Under the pieces are notes generated by a model. It saw nothing but the letters and a program-made list of their open reading frames with translations, ran no database searches and was not told the origin of the DNA. The position numbers and the translations under genes were made by a program. This document shows positions 9,775-62,876 of a stretch of 64,000 nt of DNA, in pieces (the first letter of the stretch is position 1; each line of letters begins with the position of its first letter). The stretch covers positions 80,540,001 through 80,604,000 of the forward strand of contig NC_086097.1 in the NCBI RefSeq assembly GCF_963921235.1, given 5' to 3'. This stretch comes from Mobula hypostoma. Taxonomy: Eukaryota.

Positions 9775-9918
9775 CAGTTCAGCCCTGATGAAGGGTCTCG
9801 GTCCAAAACATTGACTGTTAACTCTGTTCTATAGATGCTACTTGGCCTGCTGAGTTCCTCCAGCATCTTTTGTTTGTTGCTCGGATTTCCAGCATCTGCA
9901 GATTTTCTCATGTTTGTG
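9775..9918 (+). mobile_element. Penelope-like 3' terminus fragment with degenerate hammerhead
   Basis: ccctgatgaagggtctcggtccaaaacattgactg...cagcatctgcagattttctc homologous to 15790-15922. Confidence 0.8.
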
Positions 9919-11421: not shown

Positions 11422-12332
11422 TTCAGCGTCAATGAATTGGTGCTACAGACCAAGTGAGATCCCCAACAAGAAATATACAATAAGACTGTTGTTTGTATAT
11501 ATCTATAAAAATATTCAAAGAATTATCAACCTAAATGGCCTAAGCTAGTTTGCTAACAGTATGCACTGCATAAGCTGAGAGCTGGCTAGGGTTGCTGGGC
11601 AACACTTCTGAGCTGCACCCAATAGTGGATACATTGTAATAATCTGTGGGCCACTAGCGTGGGGAAGTGCACAGAGACAGAAGCAGCAAGGAAGTTAGAG
11701 AAGTCAGTCAAACTCTCAGGGAGAGAGTTCACTTTTGTAGTCCAGGTAAATAAAATAATAAATAAACAGCCAGGAAAATGGAGCAAATACCTACAGTACC
11801 TAATAAAGCCTCCTGAGACATTTGGTTTCTCTGAACCAGGGGACTTAGAGAGATTTAGGGTTGCAAGTAATCTCAGTCAGTCTTCAGAAGAGCATCAAAT
11901 AAGCACACTGATAAATTGCATGGAGGACAAAGCAGATGACATCATGGATGGATTAGCACTGACAGATGCTCAGAAGATGTACAAAGCAGTGCAGGTCAAA
12001 TTCAAAGAATATTTTACAGGAAAACAAAATGTGATATATGAAAACAGGAGCCAGATGAAAATACAAATGACTTCATCACAGCATTGTATGCCCTGCCAGA
12101 CAATGGTGCATATGGAAATGTGAGAGATGAATTCATTAGAGACAGGGTTGTTGTTGAGTTACTAGACACCAAATTATCAGAAAGACTTCAGTTACAGGCA
12201 AATATCACTCTAGAGAAGGCAGAGTGAGAATGTTCACCAGCAACAGGCATGAAAGTGATGCTGAGGTAAAGCTACACACATCAAAGTTGCTGGTGAACGC
12301 AGCAGGCCAGGCAGCATCTGTAGGAAGAGGTG

Positions 12333-12370
12333 CAGTCGACGTTTCAGGCCGAGACCCTTCGTCAGGACTA
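12333..12370 (-). ncRNA. Minimal type I hammerhead ribozyme
   Basis: Minus strand tagtc-CTGACGA-agg gtctcgg cct-GAAA-c-GTC-gactg: intact core, helix I and helix II pairing. Confidence 0.85.
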
Positions 12371-12665
12371 ACTGAAGGAAGAATGAGTAAGGGATTTGAA
12401 AGTTGGAGGGGGAGGGGGAGATCCAAAATGATAGGAGAAGACAGGAGGGGGAGGGATAGAGCCAAGAGCTGGACAGGTGATAGGCAAAAGGGGATACGAG
12501 AGGATCATGGGACAGGAGGTCCGGGAAGAAAGACAAGGGGCGGGGGGAACCCAGAGGATGGGCAAGGGGTATATTCAGAGGGACAGAGGGAGAAAAAGGA
12601 GAGTGAGAGAAAGAATGTGTGCATAAAAATAAGTAACAGATGGGGTACGAGGGGGAGGTGGGGCA

Positions 12666-14365
12666 TTAGCGGAAGTTAGAGAAGTCGATGTTCATGCCAG
12701 CAGGTTGGAGGCTACCCAGATGGAATATAAGGTGTTGTTCCTCCAACCTGAGTGTGGCTTCATCTTTACAGTAGAGGAGGCCGAGGATAGACATGTCAGA
12801 ATGGGAATGGGATGTGGAATTAAAATGTGTGGCCACTGGGAGATCCTGCTTTCTCTGGCGGACAGAGCGTAGATGTTCAGCAAAGCGGTCTCCCAGTCTG
12901 CGTCGGGTCTCGCCAATATATAAAAGGCCACATCGGGAGCACCGGACGCAGTATATCACCCCAGTTGACTCACAGGTGAAGTGTTGCCTCACCTGGAAGG
13001 ACTGTTTGGGGCCCTGAATGGTGGTAAGGGAGGAAGCGTAAGGGCATGTGTAGCACTTGTTCCGCTTACACGGATAAGTGCCAGGAGGGAGATCAGTGGG
13101 GAGGGATGGGGGGGACGAATGGACAAGGGAGTCGTGTAGGGAGCGATCCCTGCGGAATGCAGAGAGAGGGGGGGAGGGAAAGATGTGCTTAGTGGTGGGA
13201 TCCCGTTGGAGGTGGCGGAAGTTACGGAGAATAATATGTTGGACCCGGAGGCTGGTGGGGTGGTAGGTGAGGACCAGGGGAACCCTATTCCTACTGGGGT
13301 GGCGGGAGGATGAAGTGAGAGCAGATGTACGTGAAATGGGGGAGATGCGTTTAAGAGCAGAGTTGATAGTGGAGGAAGGGAAGCCCCTTTCTTTAAAAAA
13401 GGAAGACATCTCCCTCGTCCTAGAATGAAAAGCCTCATCCTGAGAGCAGATGCAGCGGACACGGAGGAATTGCAAGAAGGGGATAGCGCTTTTGCAAGAG
13501 ACAGGGTGAGAAGAGGAATAGTCCAGATAGCTGTGAGAGTCAGTAGGCTTATAGTAGACATCAGTGGATAAGCTGTCTCCAGAGACAGAGACAGAAAGAT
13601 CTAGAAAGGGGAGGGAGGTGTCGGAAATGGACCAGGTAAACTTGAGGGCAGGGTGAAAATTGGAGGCAAAGTTAATAAAGTCAAAGAGTTCTGCATGCGT
13701 GCAGGAGGCAGCACCAATGCAGTCGTCGATGTAGCGAAGGAAAAGTGGGGGACAGATACCAGAATAGGCACGGAACATAGATTGTTCCACAAACCCAACA
13801 AAAAGGCAGGCATAGCTAGGACCCATACGGGTGCCCATAGCTACACCTTTAGCTTGGAGGAAGTGGGAGGAGCCAAAGGAGAAATTATTAAGAGTAAGGA
13901 CTAATTCCGCTAGACGGAGCAGAGTGGTGGTAGAGGGGAACTGATTAGGTCTGGAATCCAAAAAGAAGCGTAGAGCTTTGAGACCTTCCTGATGGGGGAT
14001 GGAAGTATATAGGGACTGGACATCCATGGTGAAAATAAAGTGGTGGGGGCCAGGGAACTTAAAATCATCGAAAAGTTTAAGAGTGTGAGAAGTGTCACGA
14101 ACATAGGTCGGAAGGGATTGAACAAGGGGGGATAAAACCGTGTCGAGGTATGCAGAAACGAGTTTGGTGGGGCAGGAGCAAGCTGAGACAATAGGTCGGC
14201 CAGGACAGGCAGGTTTGTGGATCTTGGGTAGGAGGTAGAAACGGGGAGTGCGGGGTGTGGGAACTATAAGGTTGGTAGCAGTGGATGGGAGATCCCCTGA
14301 GCGGATAAAGTCGGTGATGGTGTGGGAGACAATGGCCTGGTGCTCCTTAGTGGGGTCACGATCGA
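12666..14365 (-). CDS. Penelope-like RT + GIY-YIG endonuclease, 5'-truncated but uninterrupted
   Basis: FYLLPKIHK..PGRPIVS, MDVQSLYTSIP, GVAMGTRMGPSYA, LRYIDD, CKRNKCYTC linker, VIYCVRCSRCGLLYIGETRRRLGDRFAEH; the ORF-track start (14366-14468) is antisense of the second copy. Confidence 0.93.
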
Positions 14366-15496
14366 TGGGTTTGTGGAACAATCTATGTTCCGTGCCTATT
14401 CTGGTATCTGTCCCCCACTTTTCTTTCGCTACATCGACGACTGCATTGGCGCTGCTTCCTGCACGCATGCAGAACTCTTTGACTTTATTAACTTTGCCTC
14501 CAACTTTCCCCTGCCCTCAAGTTTACCTGGTCCATTTCCGACACCTCCCTCCCCTTTCTAGATCTTTCTGTCTCTGTCTCTGGAGACAGCTTATCCACTG
14601 ATGTCTACTATAAGCCTACTGACTCTCACAGCTATCTGGACTATTCCTCTTCTCACCCTGTCTCTTGCAAAAGCGCCATCCCCTTCTCGCAATTCCTCCG
14701 TCTCTGCCGCATCTGCTCTCAGGATGAGGCTTTTCATTCTAGGACGAGGGAGATGTCTTCCTTTTTTAAAGAAAGGGGCTTCCCTTCCTCCACTATCAAC
14801 TCTGCTCTTAAACGCATCTCCCCCATTTCACGTACATCTGCTCTCACTCCATCCTCCCGCCACCCCACTAGGAATAGGGTTCCCCTGGTCCTCACCTACC
14901 ACCCCACCAGCCTCCGGGTCCAACATATTATTCTCCGTAACTTCCGCCACCTCCAACGGGATCCCACCACTAAGCACATCTTTCCCTCCCCTCCTCTCTC
15001 TGCATTCCGCAGGGATCGCTCCCTACACGACTCCCTTGTCCATTCGTCCCCCCCATCCCTCCCCACTGATCTCCCTCCTGGCACTTATCCGTGTAAGCGG
15101 AACAAGTGCTACACATGCCCTTACACTTCCTCCCTTACCACCATTCAGGGCCCCAAACAGTCCTTCCAGGTGAGGCAACACTTCACCTGTGAGTCAACTG
15201 GGGTGATATACTGCGTCCGGTGCTCCCGATGTGGCCTTTTATATATTGGCGAGACCCGACGCAGACTGGGAGACCGCTTTGCTGAACATCTACGCTCTGT
15301 CCGCCAGAGAAAGCAGGATCTCCCAGTGGCCACACATTTTAATTCCACATCTCATTCCCATTCTGACATGTCTATCCACGGCCTCCTCTACTGTAAAGAT
15401 GAAGCCACACTCAGGTTGGAGGAACAACACCTTATATTCCGTCTGCGTAGCCTCCAACCTGATGGCATGAACATCGACTTCTCTAACTTCCGCTAA
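14366..15496 (+). pseudogene. Second, shorter Penelope RT/GIY-YIG copy with a 1-bp frameshift near 14507
   Basis: FRYIDD...FASNF then frame change; ORF 14753-15496 nearly identical to the C-terminus of 12666-14365. Confidence 0.92.
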
Positions 15497-15789
15497 GGCC
15501 CCACCTCCCCCTCGTACCTCATCTGTTACTTATTTTTATGCACACATTCTTTTTCTCACTCTCCTTTTTCTCCCTCTGTCCCTCTGAATATACCTCTTGC
15601 CCATCTTCTGGGTCCCCCCCCCCTTGTCTTTCTTCCCGGACCTCCTGTCCCATGATCCTCTCGTATCCCCTTTTGCCTATCACCTGTCCAGCTCTTGGCT
15701 CTATCCCTCCCCCTCCTATCTTCTCCTATCATTTTGGATCTCCCCCTCCCCCTCCAACTTTCAAATCCCTTACTCACTCTTCCTTCAGT

Positions 15790-15827
15790 TAGTCCTGACG
15801 AAGGGTCTCGGCCTGAAACGTCGACTG
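15790..15827 (+). ncRNA. Minimal type I hammerhead ribozyme
   Basis: tagtc CTGACGA agg gtctcgg cct GAAA c GTC gactg; predicted cleavage after 15822. Confidence 0.85.
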
Positions 15828-18800
15828 CACCTCTTCCTAGAGATGCTGCCTGGCCTGCTGCGTTCACCAGCAACTTTGATTTGTGTTGCTTGAATTTCCA
15901 GCATCTGCAGTATTCCTGTTGTCTGAGGTAAAGCTAGAAGCTGTACAAGAAGAAGGATGCAAACAAGGTGCAATCAGAAAGAGGTGACAGTAGAGCTCAG
16001 CTCAAACAAAACAGAAAAGCAAAACAAAGAGCAGGTAAAATATCCAACTGCAGGGATGTGGCAAGTCTCCATTCCACGTCAAAGAGCTCTGGCCAGCAAA
16101 ACAAATGAAATGCCACCAATGCATTAGAGTTGGCCATTAAAAAAGCCAGTGTCACTCAGGAGATCAAAGAAGACCATGATTCAGATGGAGAGAGAGCTTT
16201 CCTTGGGGATCTAGATTCAAGTAGACAATGGTGTTGTACTACGGTTCAGTTGCAAAATGAGGCAGTGACCTTCAAAATGAACACTGGAGTAGATGTCACA
16301 GACATCCCCAAATGTCTATTCATAAAACTGGAGAAGGATAGAGGCCTTACACTAAACCAAAGAAAATGCTCATAAGGCCAGGCCATAAGTTCAGTGTGAA
16401 AGGAATGTTTACTACTTCCATCCATAAGAATGAGAAGCCGTTAAAAATGATGTCTTTGTTGATCAGAATCTTGTCTCACCATTACCGGGATGACATGCCA
16501 TTGAGAAGCTGAACCTCATTGCAAGGTTGAATTCGCTAAACAATGTTCAATGGCAGAAGAAATACCCAGAGTTGTTTATAGGCCTGGGGGATACTGAATG
16601 AAGAATTCCTTAATCAACTGAGGCCTAGAGTAATGCCCTACTCTCCGTTCACAGTGAGGCATATACTAGTCCTATTGATAAACAAAGTCAAAGCTGAACT
16701 TGAGAGAATGGAGGCGCTTGGCATCATAATTAGAGTGAACGGACCTACTGATTGGTGTGCGGGCATTGTTCCTGCTCACAAGCCATTTAGCACAGTGAGG
16801 ATCTTTGTTGATCTAACCTAAGGGAGAAGGTTATTCTGCCCTCTGTCGAGCACACATTGGGTGTGCGCTGGGTGGAGGAATGTTCTTTACCAAACTAGAT
16901 GCAGGGTTTTGGCAGATTTATTTCGTTCCTGGGGCACAGAAGCTCACAACCTTTATCACACCATATGGATGCTGTGCCTTCAAAAGATTCCCTTTTGACA
17001 TCTCATCAGCCCCTGAATTCTTTCATATGAGGATGAACCAAATTTTGGAAGGACTGGAAGAAGTAGTCTGCCACATGGATGATAGACTCATCTCCAGAAG
17101 CTCAAGTGAGGAATATGACAATAGAGTGGAAAATGCCTTGGAGAACCTGATACAGGCTGGAATTACCCTGAACAAATGAAATGCAAATTTGCAAAGTTGG
17201 AGGTAAGGTCCTCAGAGGGAGTGAAACCAGATTCAGACAAACTGGCAAGAGCCACTTCCATTGGTCTATGGGGAGTAGTTATATAAAATTGCAGTGGTGT
17301 ATGAAAATCGGTGGCAAATGCATCAAGAACACTGTCTCCTACTGAAGAGCATTACACCAAAATCAAAAAAGGAGACGCTCTCATGTGGGCTGGAGAATGC
17401 TTCAGCTGCTGCTTGATAGGCACTAAATTCCTACTTGAAACAGACCACAAGCTACATCGTACTCCTCAGCTCGAAACACTTTGATGACTTGCCTCCACAT
17501 CTGCAAAGATTCAGCAAAACTACTAGGACTTGATGTTTCAATCCCTATGGTAAGTTGGCACTCTCAATGTTGACAGTGGGCTTGGAGTGGTGACAAGGAG
17601 GGAGGGTAGGTACATCATTGGGGTCATCAGGTGGGCACCCTCCTTCTTTGACATTTCGTTGATAAGCCCACAACGTCTCCAAAGGGCTCAATGGTGCTAC
17701 CTGGCATTCCAGATACACCCCCCTCAGTTCCATACCCTCCTGTCTTCATCTTGCAGCCCAGTTGTCTTTCCTTTTAATCCAAATCCAATTGCTGCTTTCT
17801 TCTGCTGCATTTGATAAGGACTTGATTGCTTGTTGGAGGGAGTGACCCCTCACCCCCATCTTCTTCAATAGACTGGTCGTAGGTGCTGTTATGCGATAGT
17901 GTTATGACACTGAACATATACTTGACGAATCTTTTACAACACCAGACACTCTGTTGAACATGACATGCAAAAGTGAGTGGATAGAAGCTGACTCCCCCCT
18001 CATGGAAGAAACCAACATCTACTTAGCTCAGGTATGTGAAAGCTTTCATACCTCATGGAGTAAACTGGATGAAATTCACACCGAGTTGGAAAAGGTTCAA
18101 ATCTGCAGGAAGGTAATGCAATACTGAGAGCATGGATGACCAACTGTTCCAAAAGGAGCTCATGAACTCAGACCTTACTGGCTTGAAAGAATCACGCTCA
18201 CCTGTCTTGATGGTTTGCTGATAAAGGGCTCCAGACTCAATATTCCTGCTTCTATGCATGCCAAAATCATCAGTGAAATCCACCAAGGTCTCGAAAAAGG
18301 CATAGAAAAATGTCACCTTAGAGCAAGGCAATCTTTGCAGTGGTCTGGTCTGAGCACACAGCTGGGAGATTGTGTGAAGCCTGCAGAAAACTGCACAAAA
18401 ATCATGCCAAATCTCTCTGTCCTACAGAATTCCCAGACTTTTCATAGCAAATTGCAGGCACAGACATTGTCAAACTGAAAAGAGACAAATATCTTCTCAC
18501 TATAGATTATATTCACAGAATGTTGAGGTGTCCAAACTGTCCTCCACATCCTCAGCAGCAGATAAACAACATCTGAAAGCTCTATTCACTTGCCATGGAA
18601 TACCAGAGACACGTGTCAGACAACCGTCTACAATTTAGCCGATCAGAGTTCAAAGCCTTTGCTAGGGACTATGAGTTCAAACACCAGATAAGCAGTCCAC
18701 GGTACCCATAGGCAAATGGAGAAGTGGAAAGAGCAGTGGAGACTGTTAACAATCTTCTACTGAAGGCAAAAGACGCCTACAAAATATTGTTAGCTCATTG

Positions 18801-22358: not shown

Positions 22359-22551
22359 AACACAAACAAGAGAAAATCTGCAGATGCTGGAAATCCGAGC
22401 AACACACACAAAATGCTGGAGGAACTCAGCAGGCCAGGCAGTATCTATGGAGAAATGTACGTTTGAGATTTCGGCCCAAAATGTCAACTGTACTTTTTTC
22501 CAATAGATGCTGCCTGGCCTGCTGAGTTCCTCCATCATTTTGTGCGTGTTG
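22359..22551. mobile_element. Miniature palindrome of two Penelope 3' termini
   Basis: caacacacacaaaatgctggaggaactcagcaggccaggcag ... ctgcctggcctgctgagttcctccatcattttgtgcgtgttg; hammerhead remnant at the centre. Confidence 0.85.
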
Positions 22552-24686
22552 ACCAGTCAATGTGATTTTTCCTTTACAAAACTATATTGTTTCTACTTAA
22601 TCAATTGATTTTCTAAGTTCTCCATTACTAAGACTTCATTGACATATTTTAGCAATTTATTGACAACATTTGCCAGGTTAACCAGTTTACACGTTATACC
22701 TTTCCTTAAATAGTATTACTTTATTTTTTAACCTTCTAATCTGCTGATCATGCTCTTTTTTTCTAAAATGAATTCTCTTGCCCCTGTTTCTGTCTTATTC
22801 TGTTCTTTTTACAATACCCGAAAAATAGATTCCTTGCTAACATGTATACTCAATCTTTTCGATTCATCATATTTTGAAATATTGGATGCTGCTTCCAAAA
22901 AATGATTCCAACCCTCATACTTCCAAATTTTTCTGGCGTAAGTTCTAATCTAATACACTTGAAAACTTTTCAGTTAGTCACAGATGAATTTATTTATTTA
23001 TTTTTAAACAGAGCTCATACATCTGAATAGAATGTAGAAGTGTTGCAGTTTTCAAACTACTTCTTCAAATGTTTGCCGTTATTTTGCTTTCAGACATTTG
23101 AATCTAATTGTGGATAATTTGCAACATGGAAAGAGAACATTTCCTCCCACTATTGACTTTGTTTAATTCTACATCTCTCCACTGTTCTCTGATCCAGAGA
23201 TATATTAAACACTTGTAAGCATCTATGTTATTCATTTCAGTGTCTCCTCATTATAGAAATCACCACAAAAATCATTCGCCGGGTTAAGAGATTTCTCATT
23301 AATTCCTTCCTGTCTCCAGCAGTGCTACCTCATACATATTTATGGACCTAAACTTTAATTTTGTGATACAAATGCAGACATTTTCCACACGCAAAGGAGA
23401 ATTGGTTAAGGTTGCGTACTTGGGTTTTCAGAAGGCCTTTGACAAGGTGCCACACATGAGGCTGCTTATCAAGTTATGAGCCCATAGTATCACAGGAAAG
23501 ATTCTAGCATGGATAAAGCAATGGCTGATTGGCAGGAGGCAAAGAGTGGGAATAGTTTTAGTTGGCTTTTCTAGTTGGCTGCCAATTTCTAGTAGTGTTC
23601 CAGAGGGGTCTATGTTGGGACTGATTCTTTTTACATTATATGTCAGTGATTTGGATGTTAGATTGATGGCTTGGTTACAAAGTTTGCATATGAAATGAAG
23701 ATAGGTGGAGGGGCAGGTAGTCTTGAGGAAGTAGAGAGGCTACAGAAGGACTCAGACAGATTTGGAGAATGGCAGATGGAATAGAGTGTTGAAAAGTGTA
23801 TGGTCCTGCACTTTGGTAGAAGTTAAAGGGTTGGCTATATTCTGAATGGAGCGACAATACAAAAAAACTGAAGTGCAAAGGGATTTGAGAATCCTTGTGC
23901 AGGATTCCCTAAAGTTTAATTGGCAGGTTGAGTCTGTGGAGAGGAAGTCAAATGTGATGTCAGCAATCATTTCAAGAGGACTAGAATATAATATTTACTC
24001 AGAGAGTGGTAGCTGTGTGGAACGAGCTTCCAGCAGAAGTGGTTGAGGCAGGTTCAATGTTGTCATTTAAAGTTAAATTGGACAGCTATATGGACAGGAA
24101 AGAAATGGAGGGTTATGGGCTGAGTGCAGGTTGGTGGGACTAGGTGAGAGTAGGAGTTCGGCACGGACTAGAAGGGCCAAGATGTTTCCATGCTGTAATT
24201 GTTATATGGTTATATGGCTAAAAACAAGGATGTAATGTTGAGACTTTATAAAGCATTTGGGAGGCCTCACTTGGAGTATTTTGAGCAGTTTTAGGCACCT
24301 TATCTTAGAAAGGATGTGCTGAAACTAGGGAGGATTCAAAGGAGGTTCATGAAAATGATTCCAGGATTGCATGGCTTAACATATGAAGAGTGTTCGTTGG
24401 CTCAGGGCCTGTATTCACTGGAATTCAGAAGAATGAGGGGTAACCTAATTGAAGCACATCAAATGATGAAAGGCCTTGATAAAGTAGATGTGGAAAAGAT
24501 ATTTCCTAGGGTGGAGAGTCTAAGACCAGAGGACACAGCCTCAGAATAGAGGGGTGTGCTTTTAGAACAGAGATGAGAAGGAATTCCTTTAGCCAGAGAG
24601 TGGTGAATCTGTGGAATTCTTTGCTACAGGCAGCTGTGGAGGCCAGATCTTTATGTATATTTAAGGCAGAGGTTGACAAATTCTTG

Positions 24687-25630
24687 TAACTTCCTCCCCC
24701 TCCAACGGGATCCCACCACTAAGCACATCTTTCCCTCCCCCACCTCTCTGCATTCCGCAGGGATCGCTCCCTACGCAACTCCCTTGTCCATTCGTCCCCC
24801 CCATCCCTCCCCACTGATCTCCCTCCTGGCACTTATCCGTGTAAGCGGAACAAGTGCTACACATGCCCTTACACTTCCTCCCTTACCACCATTCAGGGCC
24901 CCAAACAGTCCTTCCAGGTGAGGCAACACTTCACCTGTGAGTCGACTGGGGTGATATACTGCGTCCGGTGCTCCCGATGTGGCCTTTTATATATTGGCGA
25001 GACCCAACGCAGACTGGGAAACCGTCTTGCTGAACATCTACGCTCTGTCCGCCAGAGAAAGCAGGATCTCCCAGTGGCCACACATTTTAATTCCACATCT
25101 CATTCCCATTCTGACATGTCTATCCACAGCCTCCTCTACTGTAAAGATGAAGCCACACTCAGGTTGGAGGAACAACACCTTATATTCTGTCTGGGTAGCC
25201 TCCAACCTGATGGCATGAACATCGACTTCTCTAACTTCCGCTAAGGCCCCACCTCCCCTCGTACCCCATCTGTTACTTATTTTTATGCACACATTCTTTC
25301 TCTCACTCTCCTTTTTCTCCCTCTGTCCCTCTGAATATACCTCTTGCCCATCCTCTGGGTCCCCCCACCTTGTCTTTCTTCCCGGACCTCCTGTCCCATG
25401 ATCCTCTCGTATCCCCTTTTGCCTATCACCTGTCCAGCTCTTGGCTCTATCCCTCCCCCTCCTGTCTTCTCCTATCATTTTGGATCTCCCTCTCCCCCTC
25501 CAACTTTCAAATCCCTTACTCACTCTTCCTTCAGTTAGTCCTGACGAAGGGTCTCGGCCTGAAACGTCGACTGCACCTCTTCCTACAGATGCTGCCTGGC
25601 CTGCTGCGTTCACCAGCAACTTTGATGTGT
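24687..25630 (+). mobile_element. Young 5'-truncated Penelope-like copy (GIY-YIG + terminus)
   Basis: Near-identical to 14938-15884; TSD gttgacaaattcttg at 24672-24686 and 25631-25645; ORF 24918-25244. Confidence 0.95.
25536..25573 (+). ncRNA. Minimal type I hammerhead ribozyme
   Basis: Identical to 15790-15827. Confidence 0.85.
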
Positions 25631-26369
25631 GTTGACAAATTCTTGATTGGTCAGGACAAGAAGGGATACTGGGAGAAGACAGGAGTTTAGGGCTGAGAGG
25701 AAAATTGGATCGACCATGATGAAATGGTGGAGCAGACTCGATGGCCAAGTAGCCTAATTCTGCTCCTATACCTTATGGTATTTTGTTCTTATCTACACTA
25801 TCAAACCGATGCCATTCCTTCAGGGGTGGTCACTGTATGTGGGTTAGAGAAACTTGGCAATTTCAGGAGCATAGCTCTTCAGCTGCTGGCAAAATATCCA
25901 TTTACTCACTGAAACAGAAGTCATCCCTAAAAATTCAAGTTTTGCAGTGTGAGAAACTGGAGTCAGAAAATGTTTAAAGCTCTCTCAAAGTGACCTTGTA
26001 AATAAGGGACATTCTTTCCAATTCATGGCATCACAAGCTTGTGATCATTCAACAAGGAGGTGGAGGATCTGGAAGAACACTGAGCACCTTGTGACTTTAC
26101 AATGGATTTCATTAAAGAAAAGTACAAATGCACACTTCTCAAATAATCCATCCAACCCTTTCAACGAGGCAGAGTTTCCTAGTCCTATTTCAGCTTCACT
26201 GGCCAGATTGTCCTCACAATTTGAATGTTAATGGAAGGAAGTTCAAGATGCAAGTTTATTGTTATTCAATCATACACATGTAAACAGCTAAATGAATCAC
26301 AGTTCCTCTGGGGCCAAGGTGCAAAACCCAGTACATTTAATCATACAAAGCACCGATCAGATATATGTA

Positions 26370-26790
26370 GAGCAACGCACACAAAATGCTGGAGGAACTC
26401 ATCAGTTCAGGCAGCATCTATGGAAAAGAATAAACAAACGACTTTTCAGGCCGAGACACTTTTTCCATACTGAGAAGGAAGGGGGAAGCTGCCAGAATAA
26501 AAAGGTTGTGGGAGAGGAATCAGGCTAGCTGGAAGGCGATAGGTGAAGCCAAGTGGGTGGGAAAGGTCCATGGCTCGAGAAGAAAGAGTCTAATAGGAGA
26601 GGAGAGGGAAGGAGGAGGGGACCCAGGGAGAAGTAATGGGCAGATGTGAAATAAAGGTCAAAGTGGGGAATAGAGGAAGTGGGGGGGGGGGGGGGATAGA
26701 ATTTGTTTACCGGAAGGAGAAATTGATATTAATGCCATCAGGTTGGAAGGTACCCAGACAGAATATAAAGTGTTGCTCCTCCAGCCTGAA
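26370..26790 (-). mobile_element. Older Penelope-like 3' fragment
   Basis: Minus-strand RLEEQHFIFCLGTFQPDGININFS followed by the terminus. Confidence 0.85.
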
Positions 26791-27334: not shown

Positions 27335-28105
27335 AATTGAATTGACTTTATTACTTACATCCTTCACATACATGAGGAATAAAAATCTTTACGTTACGTC
27401 TCCGTCTAAATGTGCAATGTGCAACTTAGAGTAATTTGTAATAAATAGTATGTACAACAGGACAGTTAATATAGCAAAGATATACATTTGTGTCAGTGTG
27501 AATTAGTCAGTCTGATGGCCTGGTGGAAGAAGCTGTCCCAGAGCCTGTTGGTCCTGGATTTTATGATGCAGTACCATTTCCCGGAAGGCAGCAGCTGGGA
27601 CAGTTTGTGGTTGGGGTGACTTGGGTCCCCAGTGATCCTTTGGACCCTTTTTACACACCTGTCTCTGTAAACGTCCTGAATAGTGGGAAGTTCACATCTA
27701 CAGATGCGCTGGGCTGTCCGCATCACTCACTGCAGAATACTGCAATTGAGGGAAGTATAGTTCCCATACCAGCCAGTGACGCAGCCAGTCAGGATGCTCT
27801 CAATTGTGTCCCTGTAGAAAATCCTTAGGTTTTGAGGATTCATGTCAAACTTCTTCAACCGTCTGAGGTGAAAGAGGTGCTGTTGTGCTTTTTTCACTGC
27901 ACGGCCGCTATGTACAGACCATGTGAGATCCTCAGTGATGTTTATGCCGAGGAACTTAAAGCTATTCATCCTCTCAACCTCAGATCCATTGATGTCAATA
28001 GGGGTGAGCCTGTCTCCATTCCTCCTGTTGTCCACAACCATCTCCTTTGTTTTTACGACATTGAGGGAGAGGTTGTTTTCTTGATACCACTGTGTCAGAG
28101 TGATA
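27335..28105 (-). mobile_element. Rex1/Babar-like LINE 3' end
   Basis: LTQWYQENNLSLNVVKTKEMVVD..FKFLGINITEDLTWS..IESILTGCVTGWYGN; (tcaat)n tail. Confidence 0.9.
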
Positions 28106-28341
28106 TCTATCTCCACATTCCCCTGAATTTTGAAATGAAAAATGCAGTAGTAAATTGATTGCCTGGTGTATTTCAGTCTTTCATGGGCAAAAGGGCTGGA
28201 CTACAATCCAGAAACAGTAACAAGAATTTCCCAGAAAATTAAGACTGAGGGAGTAAAATTTTGGAAATGACGAGAGCCCTATTGAAATTCTCTATCTTTT
28301 GTAATGTTGAGGAAAACTGTCATTTCAGTCAGGATTAAGGA

Positions 28342-29755: not shown

Positions 29756-30345
29756 CAAATCATGTGTAAATTAGTGAAAATCATAAATGCTGTTGACTTC
29801 AATGAAGTAGAATTATCATAATAATCACCGTGCTCAGAAAACAAGCCCCAAAAGTCCAAGGAAAATACTGTGTGACTTAAGTAACAATACAAGTCGACCA
29901 CAATATAAATGATGCATTTATACCATGCAAGCACCCCTACCTCCACCAATATATAGAGCTATGAGATTACATTGACCAAGACCCCAGGAAGAACTGGCTC
30001 CTGCTCATCTGGAGCAGCAGTGTGTTTCTCATGAGGTAGAAAGTCTGTCAACCAGCTCAGGGAAATTATGCAGGTAATTATAATTTAAAGACATGATACT
30101 CAATGGGTCTGGTGAAAAACTTATCAAAATATATCCATGGGAACCACACAAGTTCCATCAGGATTCAGCCATATGTTTCTCCTTAATACTAAAGTAGCTG
30201 ATTATTTACAGGTGATCTTAACTCTTTGCACAGCCACATTACTTTTTGCGACACATCAAAAGAAACAATCCACACATTGCTGACGCTGAAAAATATTTTC
30301 AACATTTTGTCACCTTAGGAATGAAGGGAGTTGCACTGCAGTCCC

Positions 30346-31683
30346 AAACAAGAGAGAACGCGCAAATGCTGGAAATCTGAGCAACACACACAAAATGCTG
30401 GAGGAACTCAGCAGGCCAGGTAGCATCTTGGAAAAGAGTACAGTCAACGTTTTGGGCTGAGACCCTTTGGCAGGACTGGAGAAAAAAATGCTGAGAAGAT
30501 TTAAAAGTTTCGGGGAGGAGAGAGAGAAACACCAGGTGATGGATGCAACCCAAAGGGGGAGGGATGAAGTAAAGAGCTGGGAAGTTGATAGGTAAAAGGG
30601 ACAGAAGGCCATGCAAGGAAAAAAAAGGGGGGAGGAGCACCAGAGGGAAGTGATGGGTGGGCAAGGAGATAAGGTGAGAGAGGGAAAAGGGGATAGGAAA
30701 TGGTGAAGGAGAGGGGGCTGGGTGGGCATTACCAGAAGTTTGAGAAATTGCTGTTCATGCCATCAGGTTGGAGGCTACCTAAGCTATAAGGTGTTGTTCC
30801 TTCAGCCTAATGACAGTAGAGGAAGCCATGGATAGAAATATCAGAATGGGAATGGGAAATGGAATTAAAATGGGTGGCCACTGGGAGATCCTGCTTTTTG
30901 AGGTGCTTGGCGAAGTGGTATCTCAATCTATGTCAGTTCTGACCGTTATACAGGAGGCTACATCGGGAGCACTGGACAAAGTAGTGACCCTTTCAGACTC
31001 ACGGGTGAAGTGTCACCTCACCTGGAAAGGCTGCTTATGGCCATGAATGGTAGTGAGGGAGGTGATGTAGGGGCAGGTGTAGCACTTGTTCCACTTGCAA
31101 GGATAAGTGGCAGGAGGGAGATCAGTGGAGAGGGACAAATGGACAAGGGAGTTGCGTTGACTGTACTCTTTTCCAAGATGCTACCTGGCCTGCTGAGTTC
31201 CTCCAGCATTTTGTGTGTGTTGCTCAGATTTCCAGCATTTGCGCGTTCTCTCTTGTTTGGGACTGCAGTGCAACTCCCTTCATTCCTAAGGTGAACATGA
31301 GGGAAAGATGTGCTTGGTGAAGGGATCCCGTTAGAGATGGCTGAAGTTTTGGAGAATTATGTGCTGGACGCAGAAGCTGGTGGGGTGGTAGGTGAGGACA
31401 AGAAGAACCCTATCCCCAGTGGGAGGATGGGGTAAGAGCAGAAATGAGTGAAATAGAAGAGATGCGGTTGAGGGCAGTGTTGATGGTGGAGGAAGGGAAG
31501 CCCCTTTCTTTGAAATAGGAGGACATCTCCCTCATTCTAGAATGAAAAGCCTCATTCTGAGAGCAGATGCAGCAGAGGCAGAGGAATTGAGAGAAGGGGA
31601 TGGCATTTTTACAAGTAACAGGGTGGGAAGAGAAATAGTCCAGGTAGCTGTGAGAGTCCATGGGTTTGTAATAGACATCAGTG
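30346..31683 (-). mobile_element. Older degenerate Penelope-like copy containing a 140-bp inverted insertion
   Basis: TDVYYKPMDSHSYLDYFSSHP..ERGFPSSTI; degenerate GIY-YIG; decayed hammerhead 30441-30478. Confidence 0.9.
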
Positions 31684-32798: not shown

Positions 32799-34741
32799 AT
32801 TAATAGTCCATTCTCCAGTCATCCTGATGCAGGGCTTTAACCAGAAATGTTAACGATTCCTCCCTAACCTTTCCCACCCCAGCCCTTCCATACATGCTGC
32901 TCCATGCACTGAATTCCTCCAGCTTATTGCTCCGGATTACTGCATCTGCAGTATTTTGATTCCATGAATGAAGAGTTAAAGGCCAACAGCAACTTTATGA
33001 ATTTCAGATCAATCATTCACAATGGTCTATGGGCACGAGTTGTTGATAATGATTACTTTTCTGTTATCAGATCCTGGGTTTTCAAACTGGGGTGTCATGC
33101 AACAAAGATATCCACACCAGAAGCTTATCATATCTCATTTTCAGCCGCTCTTATATTTCTTAATATTGACAGCTCTGACTGAAGTTATCGATGAGAAACT
33201 TTAACTCCATTTCCCTCTGTAAGTGAACATGCTGAGCCTTGATATTTATTGGATACAGATTATATGCAGTAAGTTTACATACATCCCAATTAAATTAACA
33301 GATGGAACTCATTAATATGCCTGCTTTCTATACTGATGGTGACACTAATTTTTAAACAGTTGCAATATCTTGAGATTTTTAGCTCCTTGGTTACTTTATC
33401 CCATAATATCGTATAAAATCAAACACTATTCACAAAGTGCTGATTATCAGAATCTCAGCATGTTAGCATGATAACACTAAAGCAGATTTCAGACATTGAA
33501 CAAAGACATTATTTATATAGACACCCAAAGCAAAATGAAGTTGCTATTAAAAATAAAGCTACTCACTGTTGTGTAAAAGAGTTTGCTGACAGCAGAAAAT
33601 AATTAAACACATTTCAGTGTAGCTCAGTTCCTTAAAAGTGTGTTCATTATAAAGCCCAGTAGGCTAATTACTAAGGAAGTAACAAGATTGATGGGAGAGG
33701 GATCTGACGATGCGGTGGGCAGACACTCAGTCAAGGTGACAACAGGGAGCGCTCAATAAGTTCCCAACCTCCCCTCCAACATAGACACACACACACACAA
33801 AAATCGATGACGAGCTCGGGGAGAGTTAGGGACTTAATAACTAGCAGCCTCAAAGAGAAAAGGATTCACATCATGTGGACCAGTTAGCTGATGACCAAAT
33901 AATTCAATTTACAACAGTGCTTTACAATTCACTACCAGAAAAAGGTTGGAAAAATTGTGGTGGTGCAGATGAAATTACAATTGCAAGTACACACAGAGTG
34001 CTTTAGTATTATGATCATTACATCATGGTATCACTCTAACTAGATATTGGGCAGTAAAGTTGATCTCAAGATTAAGGAAAAAACATTGAACGATACAATT
34101 ACAGCAGATGCTTATTTTTAGAATATCTATAAGGATTCAAACATATAAGAATTATTTTCCCTCACTATGTACAGATAGAGGATTTAAATTGACAGCAATA
34201 CTTTGGTTCCTATTCACAGACTCTACACAATCACAGGAACAGCAGGATGAATAGAATCTGTATTATTTGGTAAAAATTCTTGAAGAGTTGTGCATAGAAG
34301 TGGGGGGGGGGGTGGTGGGAACTGGAAAGGAAAGCTGCTGCATGTACTCTACATTCAAGCACTAACTGAAGAATATTTTTCACCCTTCATTTAGGATAGG
34401 GCTTCAAAACATGAAAGAAAATGTCAGCAGGAACCAGGTGGACTGACATGGGCAGTTCCAGAGGGAATGGCAGGCTGTCAGCAATGAGGGGAATCTGACA
34501 GGCAACGCATGACATGGACTTCCATGTATGTGCTTTGAAAGAAGCAAGTACAATTGGAGCTGGATGCTTGATGCCTTCTTCACTGAGGGACTCTCCAGTG
34601 AGCTCAGTAGTGAAGCAGCAATGTGAAGAGCAGGTCCAGGTATACATTGCATGCTTCCCCAGGTTTCCATCATGGAGAATGACAGTGTCAACAGTGAAAA
34701 GAGATTTGTTGGACATGTGGGGAGATAAGATAAATGCCTTG

Positions 34742-34990
34742 ATTTACAGCTTCTTATTTCATCCTTTTCCCCCCTCCCCACCACCCACCTCTCCCCTCAC
34801 CTGGTCTCACCTATCAGCTGCCAGCTTGTACTCCTTCCCCTCTCCCTCTCCTCCTTATTCTGGCTTCTGTCCCCTTCCTTTCCAGTCTTGATGGGGTGGG
34901 GGGGTCTCAGCCTGAATCATCGTTTATTCTCCTCCATAGATGCTGCCTGACTTACTGAGCTCCTCCAGCATTTTGTGTATGTTTCTCTTG
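34742..34990 (+). mobile_element. Older Penelope-like 3' terminus fragment
   Basis: cacctatcagctgccagcttg...ggtctcagcctgaa...tagatgctgcctgacttactgagctcctccagcattttgtg. Confidence 0.75.
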
Positions 34991-37576: not shown

Positions 37577-37771
37577 TGTAGCGATGTGCTACACACAGCG
37601 CTAGAATAACCACACAGAGTCGGTGAGTTGGAGTTGCGATGAAAGAGGTTTATTCAAACTTCGCGGCCCGCTTTAAAGCCTTCCCGTTCCCGCCCTTTTT
37701 GCTGCTGGCCCTCTGCCTGCGCACGCTGTTTCGTGAGCTGGTTCGTGGGTGTCAGAAAGTGGGTCGCCACA
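37577..37771 (-). repeat. 3' LTR
   Basis: TGT...ACA; 6 differences from 41580-41774. Confidence 0.97.
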
Positions 37772-40700
37772 TAACCACCACCCCCCAGAACCGGCGATAC
37801 CTCCCCCAATGTCCACAGCCTGGATCGGCCTCTGTTTGGGAGGTCTGCCCCTGCGCCGCGGTGCCTGAGCCTGGACCGGTTGCGCCAAGTCCACATGGGC
37901 CGGTTTGAGTCGGTCCACCGTGAAAACCTCCTCTCTCCCCACAATGTCCAGCACGAACGTGGACCCGTTGTTGCTGATCACCTTAAACGGCCCCTCGTAG
38001 GGCCGCTGTAGCGGTGCCCGGTGTCCGCCCCGTCGTACAAAAAGAAACTTACAGTTCTGCAGGTCTTTGGGTACGCAGGTCGGGCTCTGTCCGTGCTGTG
38101 AAGTGGGGATGGGGGCCAGGTTACCGAGCCTCTCCCGTAGTCTGTCCAGGACTGCTGTGGGTTCTTCCTCTTGCCCCCTTGGGGCTGGTATGAACTCTCC
38201 TGGGACGACCAGGGGTGCGCCGTACACCAACTCAGCCGACGAGGTGTGTAGATCCTCTTTGGGCGCCGTGCGGATTCCGAGCAGGACCCAGGAAAGTTCG
38301 CCCACCCAGTTAGGCCCCTCCAGGCGGGCCATGAGAGCCGATTTCAGGTGACGGTGGAAGCGCTCCACTAGTCCGTTCGACTGTGGGTGGTAGGCAGTTG
38401 TGTGGTGTAGCTGTGTTCCTAAAAGTCTGGCCATAGCCGACCACAGGCTGGAGGTGAACTGGGTGCCCCTGTCGGAGGTAATGTGGGCCGGTACCCCAAA
38501 GCGTGCTACCCAGGTTGCGATCAGTGCTCGGGCGCAGGATTCGGAGGTGGTGTCGCTGAGCGGGACTGCCTCTGGCCATCTGGTGAACCAGTCTACGATA
38601 GTTAGGAGGTACCGCGCTCCTCGTGACACTGGCAGGGGCCCCACGATATCCACATGGATGTGGTCGAACCTCCGGCGGGTGGGTTCGAACCGCTGCGGTG
38701 GAGCCTTGGTGTGCCGCTGCACCTTGGCCGTTTGGCACTGCATGCACGTTTTGGCCCATTCACTGACCTGTTTACGAAGTCCATGCCACACGAACCTGTT
38801 GGAGACCAGCCGGACAGTTGTCCTGATGGAGGGGTGCGCTAAGTTGTGAATGGATTCGAACACCCGCCGGCGCCAGGCTGCTGGGACGACGGGGCGGGGT
38901 TGGCCAGTAGCTACGTCACTTAGTAGGGTCCTCTCACCTGGGCCTACGGGGAGGTCTTGGAGCTGCAAACCAGAGACTGCAGTCCTGTAACTGGGGATCT
39001 CAGCGTCTGCCTGCTGTGCCTCTGCCAGCGCTGCATAGTCCACCCCCTGGGACAGGGCCTGTATGGTAGGTCTGGAAAGTGCGTCTGCCACGACATTGTT
39101 CTTTCCAGAGACATGCCGGATGTCCGTCGTGTACTCGGAGATGTAGGACAGATGTCGCTGCTGGCGGGACGACCAGGGGTCGGACACCTTAGTGAACGCA
39201 AAGGTAAGCGGTTTGTGGTCTGTGAACACGGTGAAGGGCCTACCTTCTAAGAAGTACCTGAAATGCCGGATTGCCAGGTATAGTGCCAATAGCTCCCGGT
39301 CGAAAGCACTGTATTTGAGTTCGGGTGGTCGTAGGTGTTTGCTGAAGAACGCCAGGGGTTGCCAGCGACCCTCGATGAGTTGTTCCAGCACTCCACCGAC
39401 TGTTGTGTTGGATGCGTCCACCGTGAGGGCAGTAGGAACGTCCGTTCTGGGGTGCACTAGCATCGCGGCGTTTGCCAAGGCTTCTTTGGTTTTAACGAAA
39501 GCAGTTGCGGCCTCTTCGTTCCAGGTAATGTCCTTGCCCTTACCCGACATTAGAGTGAACAAGGGGCGCATGGTTCAGGCTGCTGAGGGGAGGAAATGGT
39601 GGTAGAAATTCACCATACCCACGAATTCCTGCAAGCCTTTGATTGTGTTGGGTCGGGGGAAGTGGCGGACCGCGTCTACCTTGGCGGGCAGCGGGGTTGC
39701 CCCGTCTTTAGTAATCCTGTGGCCCAGGAAGTCGATGGTGTCGAGTCCGAACTGGCATTTGGCTGGATTGATTGTAAGGCCGAATTCACTCAGGCGGGAG
39801 TAGAGCTGGCGGAGGTGGGACAGATGCTCTTGCCGACTACTGCTGGCTATGAGGATGTCGTCCAAATAGATGAATGCAAAGTCCAGGTCGTGTCCCACCG
39901 CGTCCATTAGCCGCTGGAAAGTCTGTGCGGCGTTCTTTAGACCAAACGGCATTCGGAGGAATTCGAAAAGTCCGAACGGGGTGATAAGTGCTGTTTTGGG
40001 GATGTCGTCCGGATGTACAGGGATTTGATGGTATCCCCGGATGAGGTCTACCTTGGAAAAGATCCTCGTGCCGTGTAGGTTTGCTGCGAAGTCTTGAATG
40101 TGCGGCACAGGGTAGCGGTCTGGCGTTGTAGCCTCGTTCAGTCTGCGGTAGTCACCGCATGGTCTCCAGCCCCCCGTTGCCTTGGGCACCATGTGAAAGG
40201 GGGAGGCCCATGGGCTGTCGGACCGTCGTATGATCCCTAATTCCTCCATCTTCTTGAACTCCTCCTTCGCCAGTCGGAGCTTGTCCGGGGGAAGCCTTCG
40301 AGCACGGGCGTGGAGGGGTAGTCCCTGGGTCGGGATGTGGTGCTGTACTCCGTGTCTGGGCATGGCTGCCCTGAACTGCGGTGTCAGTACTGATGGGAAA
40401 TCCGCCAGGACCCTGGTGAATTCATCGTCGGACAGCGTGATGGAGTCCAGGTGTGGGGCTGGCAACTGTGCTTCACCCAGGGAGAACGTTTGAAAAGTCT
40501 TGGCGTGGACTAATCGCTTCCTTTGCAAGTCGACCAGCAGGCTGTGGGCTCGTAGAAAATCTGCCCCCAGCAGTGGTTGGGCCACGGCGGCCAGTGTGAA
40601 GTCCCACGTGAACCGGCTGGAACTGAACTGTAGCCGCGCCGTGCGGGTGCCGTAGGTTCGTATTGTGCTGCCATTAGCGGCCCTCAGGGTGGGTCCCGGT

Positions 40701-41539
40701 TCTCTGTTGCGGGTGTCGTAACTCGTTGGAGGTAAGACGCTGATCTCCGCTCCGGTGTCGACCAAAAAGCGGCGTCCCGACTGCTTGTCCCAGACGTACA
40801 GGAGGCTGTCCTGATGGCCAGCCGCCGTAGCGATCGGCAGCGGCTGGGCCTTGGCGTTTCCCGGGAATTTGCAGGGCGGTCTGCAGCGGCGGGCCTCCGT
40901 GCCCCACCGCTGGTGGTAGAAACACCATTGTTCGTTGGGCTCCTCACTCCCGTCGCCGGGTCTTGTAGGCTCTGCTGCCGGGCCCGGTCTGGTCTGTCGT
41001 TGGGCACGCGGCTTGGTGATCTGTGCGACGGATGCCCCTCTCTCTTTCCTGGCATTCCACAGCACATCTGCTCGGGCCGCCACCTCCCGGGGGTTGCTGA
41101 AATCTGCGTCGGACAGCAGCAGGCATATGTCCTTGGGCAGTTGCTCTAGGAACGCCTGCTCAAACATGAGGCAGGGTTTGTGTCCTTCAGCCAGGGCCAG
41201 CATCTCGTTCATTAATGCTGACGGCGGCCTGTCTCCCAAGCCATCCAGGTGCATTAAGCGGCGTGCTCGTTCGCGCCGTGAGAGTCCGCAAGTCCTTATG
41301 AGCAGGGCTTTGAATGCTGTGTATTTGCCGTCCTCCGGGGGCGACTGTATAAACTCCTCAACTTGTGCAGCAGTCTCCTGGTCGAGGGAGCTCAGCACGT
41401 AGTAGTAGCGAGTGGACTCCGAGGTTATCTGCCGAATGTGGAATTGTGCTTCTGCTTGTTGGAACCATAAATGGCGTCGCAGCGTCCAGGAGCTTGGCAG
41501 TTCTAACGAAACTACGTGAACAGATGCAGCGTCGGTCAT
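37673..41539 (-). pseudogene. gag-pol polyprotein (Gag CHCC, protease, RT, RNase H, integrase) with one in-frame TGA at 39575-39577
   Basis: [61 protein letters not shown] core, PYEGPF; the two ORF-track ORFs share a frame across gcc TGA acc atg. Confidence 0.95.
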
Positions 41540-41563
41540 CTCTGGTCCAAATATCGTTTGGGC

Positions 41564-41577
41564 CGTCGGGGTCACCA
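41564..41577 (-). promoter_or_regulatory. Primer-binding site, tRNA-Trp
   Basis: tggtgaccccgacg, 2 nt inside the 5' LTR boundary, complementary to the tRNA-Trp 3' end. Confidence 0.88.
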
Positions 41578-41579
41578 AT

Positions 41580-41774
41580 TGTAGCGATGTGCTACACACA
41601 GCGCTAGAATAACCACACGGAGTCAGTGAGTTGGAGTTGCGATGAAAGAGGTTTATTCAAACTTCGCGGCCCGCTTTAAAGCCTTCCCGTTCCCGCCCTT
41701 TTTGCTGCCGGCCCTCTGCCTGCGCGCGCTGTTTCGTGAGCCGGTTCGTGGGTGTCAGAAAGTGGGTCGCCACC
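41580..41774 (-). repeat. 5' LTR
   Basis: Direct repeat of 37577-37771; outermost base differs (c instead of a at 41774). Confidence 0.97.
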
Positions 41775-51744: not shown

Positions 51745-52392
51745 GTCTATGATCTCACCTGGTCCCTGAACTCCTCCAACCTGATCAAAAAGGTGCAACA
51801 GCGCCTTTATTCCTTTATTTCCTGTGGAACATCAAGAAAGCTCACCTCTGTCCCAGGATACGGACGGACTTTTACCGCTGTACCATTGAGAGCATGCTCA
51901 CCAACTGCATCTCAGTGTGGTATGGCAATTGTCCCGTATCGGACCGCGAAGCACTCCAGCGAGTGGTGAACATTGCCCAGCAGATTATCGGCACCCAATT
52001 GCCCACCACTGAGAACATTTACCGTAAATGCTGCATGGGCAGGGCAAAAAACATTATCAAGGATGCATCTCACCCTAACCATGGACTTTTTACTCTCCTC
52101 CCATCTGGTAGGCACTACAGGAGCCTCCGCTTCCGCACCAGCAGGCGCAGGAAAAGCTTCTTCCCTGAGGTTGTGACCCTGCTGAACCTCTCATCACAGC
52201 GCTAAGCAGTATTGCACCCATATTGTACTGTCTCAGTACTTTTATATTTGTGTGCTGTAGTACTTACTTTTTATTCGCAGTTATTTTGTAAATAACACTA
52301 TTCTTTTGCATTTCTGGTTAGATGCTATTTCTATTTCATTAGCTTTGTATCTGTACTCGGCACAATGACAATAAAGTTGAATCTAATCTAAT
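51745..52392 (+). mobile_element. Rex1/Babar-like LINE 3' end
   Basis: ESMLTNCISVWYGNC..LQRVVNIAQQIIG..LLPSGRHYRSL..SFFPEVVTLLN; tail (aatct)n. Confidence 0.9.
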
Positions 52393-53553: not shown

Positions 53554-53730
53554 AAATACTGAAACATTCAGTGAGTCAGACAGGCAGTATCTATGAAAAG
53601 TGAAGCATCGGCAACATTTCAGGTCAAAAACCTTTCATCAGAACTAACAACTTGAACAGTAATCCTATTACGTTTCAGTGTGGGCTGCTTTGTCATTTTT
53701 TTCCCCCCATAGATGCTGCCTGATTTACTA
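53554..53730. mobile_element. Old miniature palindrome of Penelope termini
   Basis: caggcagtatctatg ... catagatgctgcctg inverted pair; minus-strand ttctgatgaaaggtttttgacctgaaatgttg hammerhead remnant. Confidence 0.6.
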
Positions 53731-56109: not shown

Positions 56110-56285
56110 CCATAAGACCATAAGATTCTGGAGCAGAATTAGGCCACTTGGCCGTTTGAGTCTGCTCCGCCATTTCAACATGGCCGATCCATTTTCCCTC
56201 TCAGCCCCAGACACCTGCCTTCTCCCTGTATCCCTTCATGCTCTGACTAATCAAGAATTTATCAACCTCTGCCTTAAATATATTC
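56110..56285 (-). mobile_element. CR1 3' end
   Basis: (ccataaga)2 tail and similarity to 44005-44180. Confidence 0.8.
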
Positions 56286-62373: not shown

Positions 62374-62876
62374 CAGTACTGTGCAAAAGTCTTAGGCACC
62401 TAGATTATTTATATGGTTTCACATGGTATGGCCTCCAAAGAGCCCTGATCTCAACATTATTGAGGCTGTCTGGGATTACCTGGAGAGAAAGAAGCAAGTA
62501 ACACAGCTAAAGTCTTCAGAAGAACAGTGGCAAGTTCTCCAAGACCTACAAGCTGATTTTCTTATAAAACTGCATGGCAGTGTACCTAAAAGAATTGATG
62601 CAGTTTCAAAAGCAAAGGGTAGTCACACCAAATATTGATTTGATTTAGAAATTTACTGTTTACTGCTCTTCATAGTAATTTTTTAGATACTTAGGGACTT
62701 CTAATTTCATTATTTTTGAACGTATATTTGCTTTACTGAGCAACACACACAAAATACCAAAGGAACTCAGCAGGTCAGGCAGCATCAATGGAAATAAATT
62801 AGCAGCTGACGTTTCGGGCTGAGACATTTCTTACAGAATTTTTTTTACATACGCCCAAGACTTTTGCACAGTACTG
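62374..62876 (+). mobile_element. Internally deleted Tc1 derivative (503 bp) with nested Penelope terminus fragment (~62738-62826, minus)
   Basis: TA|cagtactgtgcaaaagtcttaggc ... gcccaagacttttgcacagtactg|TA (24-bp TIR, 1 mismatch); transposase C-terminus WPPKSPDLNIIEAVWDYLERK..AKGSHTKY. Confidence 0.92.

Follow-up and report, generated by a model that had tools for sequence, protein, structure and literature searches.

A minimal type I hammerhead motif in the 3′ pseudo-LTR of a Neptune-like Penelope-like element from the ray Mobula hypostoma

Judged by its sequence, a 38-nt motif that occurs three times in a stretch of Mobula hypostoma DNA is a minimal type I hammerhead (min-HHR) and lies within the 3′ pseudo-LTR (pLTR) of a Neptune-like Penelope-like element (PLE). 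The stretch analyzed, here called the window, is 64,000 nt long (assembly GCF_963921235.1, contig NC_086097.1, positions 80,540,001 to 80,604,000). The copies lie at 15790-15827 (+), 12333-12370 (−) and 25536-25573 (+), and they are letter-for-letter identical, as an earlier reading of the same DNA without database searches (the sequence-only reading) had stated. We refer to them as copies B, A and C, respectively, after the elements that carry them. Copy B was assigned by sequence comparison, alignment and a covariance model, and copies A and C by similarity and the covariance model.

The anatomy of the motif can be followed letter by letter in copy B. Helix I has 5 bp (15790-94/15823-27), which is the type I topology with a short helix I. 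The core CUGACGA (15795-801) is followed by a helix II region of 13 nt (15802-14), by GAAA (15815-18), and then by CG and UC before the 3′ strand of helix I, an arrangement that contains the required CUGANGA...GAAA...UH core. A palindromic ACGU (15818-21) stands in the place of helix III, with no loop 3. The sequence-only reading had described helix I, the core, GAAA and the palindrome in the same way, and its predicted cut between 15822 and 15823, with C17 at 15822, agrees with ours. Its helix II, agg paired with cct, was in the wrong register. The correct helix is GGGU/GCCU (15803-06/15811-14) around a 4-nt loop, with an extra A (15802) between positions 9 and 10.1 and a G10.1-U11.1 wobble as the closing pair. 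An extra nucleotide in this register is a stated hallmark of min-HHRs (PMC4209133). The two registers were compared in an alignment of 20 motifs, four from the window and 16 from relatives; since the relatives were picked with a descriptor that requires helices, this alignment leans towards structure. Helix II is paired in 94.9% of cases in the extra-A register vs 61.7% in the agg/cct register, and the first pair forms in 20/20 vs 3/20 motifs. Folding gives the same ranking, with pair probabilities of 0.87-0.97 for the extra-A register vs 0.02. The closing pair is G-U in A, B and C and G-C in older copies within the window. Among the 40 of 102 variants listed, one falls within the 38-mer (15814 T>C), and C makes up roughly one fifth of the summed depth at 11.1 in three public runs.

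Could such a motif arise by chance? A search for Hammerhead_1 and the other Rfam families, which the sequence-only reading had proposed as a check, came out negative: with 4227 families searched against the whole window and against the 101-nt stretch 15760-15860, no hammerhead family matched up to E 10. This result, together with a folding z-score of only −1.24, is what speaks for a chance resemblance to the hammerhead consensus, a reading whose probability we consider practically negligible. Against it, a core-only pattern has 4 matches in the window vs a mean of 0.16 in 100 shuffles, none of which reaches 4. A helix-requiring descriptor finds the three intact copies, vs 0-1 matches per window in 20 shuffles. 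A covariance model, built solely from motifs of other organisms (16 in all) and roughly calibrated in its E values, ranks the three intact copies first, at 36.6 bits and E about 3e-7. Positional conservation and covariation in related elements, described below, refute a chance origin. Viral contigs gave 0 pattern matches and 0 related loci. Rfam matches to Plastid-psbJ-4, mir-2131 and PrrB_RsmZ were rejected as below their gathering scores; the first two fall on a palindrome at 22363-22560.

Further evidence for the hammerhead comes from relatives of the host element. A search with an alignment of 22 proteins yielded 446 confirmed metagenome loci, and among the best 80 of these, 36 reach residue 500 and have at least 200 nt behind, and these were counted. 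The core, with at most one mismatch, is present within 600 nt behind the end of the endonuclease (EN) in 26 of the 36 and absent in 10; some of the 26 matches, about 4, are probably due to chance and were left in the count. These 26 were picked by core alone, so the count of helix pairing is unbiased. They comprise 22 distinct motifs, in which positions 1-3 of helix I form Watson-Crick pairs in 56 of 66 cells vs 24.4 on average and at most 42 in 5000 permutations (kinship among loci being ignored), with all four pair types present. CG occupies 15.2/16.2 in 13/22 of these motifs, and G-U occupies 10.1-11.1 in 4/22. A stricter descriptor that requires the helices matches 12 of 27 loci. In the 20-motif alignment, all 9 pairs change on both sides. 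The motif is shared with related invertebrate elements, in which changes on the two strands of helix I compensate each other. Conservation is also seen in DNA contigs. In run X1, among the 18 of 1650 rows listed, 472 contigs have loose ends before 15791 and 411 have them behind 15827. Diverged subfamilies thus part at both ends of helix I, which indicates family-level conservation of the ribozyme itself. One relative, L002, is a full pLTR-ORF-pLTR unit with an ORF of 964 aa and two hammerheads 3066 nt apart. Two others, L003 and L075, are inverted pairs resembling A and B. A separate observation concerns L002:1028-1061, where the first ATG of the ORF of this invertebrate element (1057) overlaps the predicted cut site, such that cleavage would split the start codon.

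The sequence-only reading had placed the hammerheads at Penelope-like termini, and the ORF with reverse transcriptase (RT) and GIY-YIG matches, the relatives and the literature all agree with this. All three intact motifs are preceded by frames with RT and GIY-YIG matches, whose stop codons lie about 300 nt upstream, and a pLTR location in an RT + GIY-YIG element is seen both in the window and in the tandem unit of L002. Element A (12275-14365, −) is 5′-truncated: its RT + GIY-YIG frame, open over about 565 aa, is followed by the 3′ pLTR, and the element begins near residue 400 of the 964-aa relative and is without roughly the first 40% of that full-length relative's ORF. Element B (14366-15922, +) is likewise 5′-truncated, stands head-to-head with A, is 98% identical to it, and has a frame break near 14505. 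B ends in an extension of about 38 bp (15885-15922, +) that is found in neither A nor C. Inverted PLE insertions have an optional tail of 30-40 bp at one end (PMC8557442, PMC3846280), and the extension of B matches this description. A 14-bp target-site duplication surrounds the two elements, with its left copy at 12261-12274 and its right copy at 15923-15936. Because one direct repeat encloses both, A and B are a single insertion. Element C (24687-25630, +), also 5′-truncated, consists of the GIY-YIG end and the pLTR and has its own 15-bp duplications (24672-24686 and 25631-25645). Hence, the "three copies" of the sequence-only reading are not independent; there were two recent insertions, A+B and C. 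C itself sits in another dispersed repeat (24530-24686 and 25631-25785) that recurs at 1937-2215 and 56110-56283.

To which group of PLEs do these elements belong? The linker that joins RT to EN contains CX4CX2C (residues 432-440 of the frame of A), an instance of the CX2-5CxxC form, and the C-terminal GIY-YIG domain has two histidines as well as two cysteines placed between GIY and YIG. The cysteine linker points to Neptune or Nematis, outside Penelope/Poseidon (PMC8557442). We call the host element Neptune-like on the basis of such sequence features rather than a reference-sequence tree, with the linker excluding Penelope/Poseidon but not Nematis. Among named proteins, the nearest are those of Mobula hypostoma (94%, 91%), followed by Hypanus sabinus (77-87%).

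The identity of the three 38-mers could be taken to mean that selection maintains A, B and C themselves as working ribozymes for the cutting of host transcripts. All 38 letters are the same in the three copies, four CpGs included, but several observations make this reading very unlikely. First, the copies are about 97%-98% identical overall, with 38 of 954 columns varying among A, B and C, and an invariant 38-nt stretch is expected at this level of identity (P about 0.21); there are four longer invariant runs elsewhere. The identity of the 38-mers therefore reflects youth, not selection. Second, A and B count as one insertion. Third, each copy is without a tandem partner, A being antisense to B and C lying 9.7 kb from B, its nearest partner on the same strand. 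Among the 38 other ORFs of the window, no host-gene families were seen, only retroelement-type matches and ALKBH8_N. Most likely, A, B and C are passengers, and the selection that can be seen acted on active masters of the family.

Older hammerheads are scattered through the window. The sequence-only reading had listed seven decayed versions, and remnants were found at or near all seven sites, though the one near 32820 is weak and the one near 22465 has only a 3′ half. Two belong to an older subfamily by similarity: 9780-9817 (+; covariance model 9779-9818, E 0.1) and 30441-30478 (−; 30440-30479, E 0.67), the latter behind RT/EN remnants. A hammerhead of a different subfamily at 53607-53647 (−), found with the core-only pattern (covariance model E 0.003), has an intact core, A10.1-U11.1 in helix II and a broken helix I. 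BLAST and mismatch scans recovered a copy with a disrupted core at 34885-34925 (+; similarity over 34885-34970), a decayed copy at 62803-62840 (−), and one at 26435-26472 (−) that was absent from the earlier list. The remnant at 32818-32857 (+) is hammerhead-like but strongly decayed, and its covariance-model E of 5.6 is at noise level. The 3′ half at 22471-22500 (+) sits in the short head-to-head palindrome at 22363-22560. The block that adjoins the ribozyme downstream has 14 copies in the window, ten of which form five head-to-head pairs. The pairs of pLTR ends are 22446/22505, 30428/31176, 32083/32820, 53592/53711 and A/B, with spacers from <100 bp to 3.5 kb. Within one otherwise much decayed Penelope copy, 30310-30449 and 31155-31294 form a 140-bp inverted repeat that is 100% identical. 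This repeat, which holds an old Penelope end, may be a recent templated insertion, a conversion or an assembly artefact.

How would such a motif cleave? We think it probable that it cleaves weakly, aided by a dimer partner or by the element's protein, in a tandem precursor RNA. A single motif, its helix III reduced to the self-complementary ACGU, would fold as an inactive rod. Two motifs would pair their ACGU palindromes to give a double hammerhead, leading to a cut after C17. Dimer cleavage is reportedly the subject of Lünse et al. 2017, to go by its title. Alternatively, the element's own protein would refold the RNA so that the same cut is made. In either case, the substrate would be transcripts that run through tandem copies.

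Folding was assessed with a nearest-neighbor model that has no tertiary terms. The minimum free energy structure of the monomer is an inactive rod at −11 kcal/mol, with the GACG of the core paired to CGUC at the cut site. A double hammerhead can be drawn in which helix I is swapped and the ACGU sequences form an intermolecular helix, at −11.5 kcal/mol vs −22.0 for two monomers vs −30.3 for the best inactive dimer. In contexts of at least 76 nt, the pair probabilities of helices I and II are at most 0.04. None of the folding z-scores stands out (−1.24 to −0.25, with −1.78 for the longest stretch). These values agree with what is reported for related motifs, and for this reason weak, assisted cleavage is taken as the likeliest. 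Schistosoma min-HHRs show no cleavage as monomers and low cleavage as dimers or trimers (PMC4209133). The ribozyme of the Anolis Poseidon element cuts only with the element's protein (PMC11167929). Some findings count against assisted cleavage. The computed energies disfavor the active dimer, Rfam has no match, and 10 of the 36 relatives are without the core. In addition, the subfamily has mostly G10.1-U11.1, not the G10.1-C11.1 pair that PMC4209133 calls highly conserved and that is not obligatory in min-HHRs. No pile-up of molecule ends was listed for the RNA runs, which consist of contigs and would not reveal such ends; raw-read run X21 contributed only 2 reads.

The same facts could be read differently: the anatomy may be kept for a role as a protein-binding or folding site, or for splice or translation signals, with the RNA cutting rarely or never in vivo. 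The disfavored active folds and the G-U closing pair of the subfamily are consistent with this, as are observations from other PLEs. In Anolis, core mutants insert normally in vitro, meaning that the ribozyme is dispensable for insertion under those conditions, and no RNA-seq reads were found to end at the cut site (PMC11167929). Naiad elements thrive without a canonical hammerhead (HHR) (PMC8557442). Against a non-cutting role, the core letters are fixed and helix I covaries in relatives at about 40%-60% protein identity, a combination that fits catalysis. The Anolis motif does cut when protein is present, with a C3/G8 rescue of the protein-aided cleavage (PMC11167929). We consider a non-cutting role rather unlikely, and assisted cleavage remains the preferred reading.

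The splice-like framing of the hammerhead is its only fresh feature, and it might remove the ribozyme from the element's mRNA. Specifically, an intron could run from the stop codon of the ORF either to an AG at helix I or to an AG before a downstream ATG. Use of the acceptor at helix I would alter that helix, as in the Penelope element of Drosophila virilis. Use of the downstream acceptor would remove the whole ribozyme, and the spliced mRNA would be translated. Unspliced RNA would keep the ribozyme and serve as the template for transposition. The candidate donor overlaps the ORF stop codon (15490-15497, +). It reads G/GTAA (the slash marks the junction) in older copies, two of them at about 30731 and 26707, and in loose ends at 15490-91. 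Behind it, a pyrimidine-rich spacer of about 300 bp (15497-15789, +; 80% C+T) is the candidate intron. At its 3′ end, the spacer has a branch-like CTCAC, then a run of pyrimidines and an AG (15787-88). Helix I contains a second AG (15791-92), and three older copies have the AG within helix I itself. Downstream of the hammerhead, a pyrimidine run with AG/ATG (15828-15845, +) is a second acceptor-like site and candidate ORF start, with the ATG 20 nt after the predicted cut. In 14/14 copies in the window, 10-13 of the 14 positions before this AG are pyrimidines, and AG itself is present in 13/14.

Predicted gene models in rays also bear on splicing. Three of them, P0121, P0122 and P0001 (isoforms of STARD3NL, CBFA2T1 and DIPK1C), contain Penelope terminus or RT-EN sequence, and these pieces are either exonised or mis-annotated. 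The Hemitrygon model P0122 (1 match among 33 candidates) joins host CBFA2T1 residues directly to the MLPGLL frame of the element. The join presumably lies at a host exon boundary, by the human gene. The Hypanus model P0001 runs past the end of EN into non-element residues. The Mobula model P0121 (1 match among 3 candidates) treats the ribozyme region as coding, with a junction that is compatible with, and no proof of, the first acceptor. Putative RNA contigs have joints from 15490 to 15791 (a skip of 300) and from 15482 to 15841, among the joints listed.

Other evidence argues against splicing of the ribozyme. In A, B and C, the first position of the intron is occupied by C, so that the GT donor is missing. 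The joints are ambiguous, with the intervening part undefined, and they coincide with conservation boundaries that unspliced, diverged copies would give; DNA run X1 was under-counted, and the absence of the joints from it does not serve as a control. The support from gene models is one predicted protein each. The spacer is not significantly depleted of AG (1 vs 2.8 expected), and in B the frame that opens with the ATG meets a stop after 16 codons. Invertebrate relatives, by eye, are without such a downstream acceptor, and in L002 the ATG overlaps the cut. That a spliced intron acts as a gate for the ribozyme is therefore doubtful, and we give as little credence to the more general proposition that in ray Neptune-like elements the hammerhead sits inside a spliceosomal intron whose donor overlaps the ORF stop. 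In the literature listings searched, an intron-enclosed hammerhead serving as a splice gate was not found; the only case was that of helix I in D. virilis. If splice gating is true, it would tie together two puzzles about PLEs, namely intron retention and the role of the hammerhead, and it would explain why the very abundant termini appear as alternative last exons in ray models (P0121, P0122).

The window contains other mobile elements. A Gypsy-type LTR retrotransposon at 37577-41773 (−) has 194-bp LTRs that are 97% alike and frames for gag-protease-RT and RNase H-integrase with a stop between them. At its 5′ LTR lies an Rfam primer-binding-site match (41564-41597) that is below the gathering score. 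Directly to the right of B, 16817-18475 holds RT and integrase zinc-finger remnants of another LTR-type element. Short frames that match Pfam ALKBH8_N are found at 421-873, 27730-28200 and 51753-52202, and these may be 3′ remnants of LINEs.

What does the motif add to what is known? At the end of a Penelope-type element, it reads as a self-cutting RNA of an already described kind, one of which the genomes of fish and amphibians contain thousands (PMC4209133). What PLE hammerheads do in vivo is described as open (PMC7761336, PMC8557442), and the present motif offers cleavage tests a vertebrate Neptune-like example that is young and nearly unmutated. Several known systems can be set beside it. 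First, non-LTR retrozymes carry type I hammerheads that are related to those of PLE pLTRs, and they have been reported in the one chondrichthyan genome sampled (bioRxiv 10.64898/2026.07.22.740005). Retrozymes are non-coding tandem repeats according to the same source, whereas the window copies are attached to RT/EN and are not in tandem. We rejected a retrozyme identity because, when the window is compared with itself, the copies are dispersed or inverted and are linked to remnants of ORFs. Second, the Penelope element of D. virilis has an intron that ends at the 5′ strand of helix I, like the first acceptor-like site of the window (PMC4209133). That intron is 75 bp long and was shown by RT-PCR (PMC2377424), whereas the one proposed here is a candidate of about 300 bp with a second acceptor-like site. 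Third, the Anolis Poseidon element PAc (Frangieh et al. 2024, PMC11167929) is another vertebrate PLE with a hammerhead at the boundary between pLTR and ORF. It also shares the 30-40 bp tail, which arises from two reverse-transcription start sites. It differs in belonging to the Poseidon clade, without the cysteine linker, and in its cut, which lies 26 nt behind the start codon, whereas in the window the candidate ATG follows the cut.

The closest likeness is with min-HHRs and with the EN+ PLEs of the Neptune and Nematis groups. Min-HHRs have been reported in fish Xena, Poseidon and Neptune, and in coelacanth, Xenopus and reptiles (PMC4209133); two of the three supplementary files of that paper contain no shark, skate, Callorhinchus or Leucoraja entries. 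As described by Cervera & de la Peña 2014 (PMC4209133), min-HHRs share with the window motif the type I form, CUGANGA and GAAA, the extra nucleotide between 9 and 10.1, a helix I of 4-5 bp, and the lack of a helix III beyond the palindromic 15.2-16.2. They also share the location in pLTRs, mostly as solitary copies or close inverted pairs. Compared with them, the window subfamily stands out by a helix II of 4 bp that is closed by G-U. Neptune and Nematis elements (PMC8557442) have in common with the host element the C-terminal GIY-YIG with CCHH-type cysteines, the CX2-5CxxC linker, 5′ truncation, an inverted partner copy and the tail.
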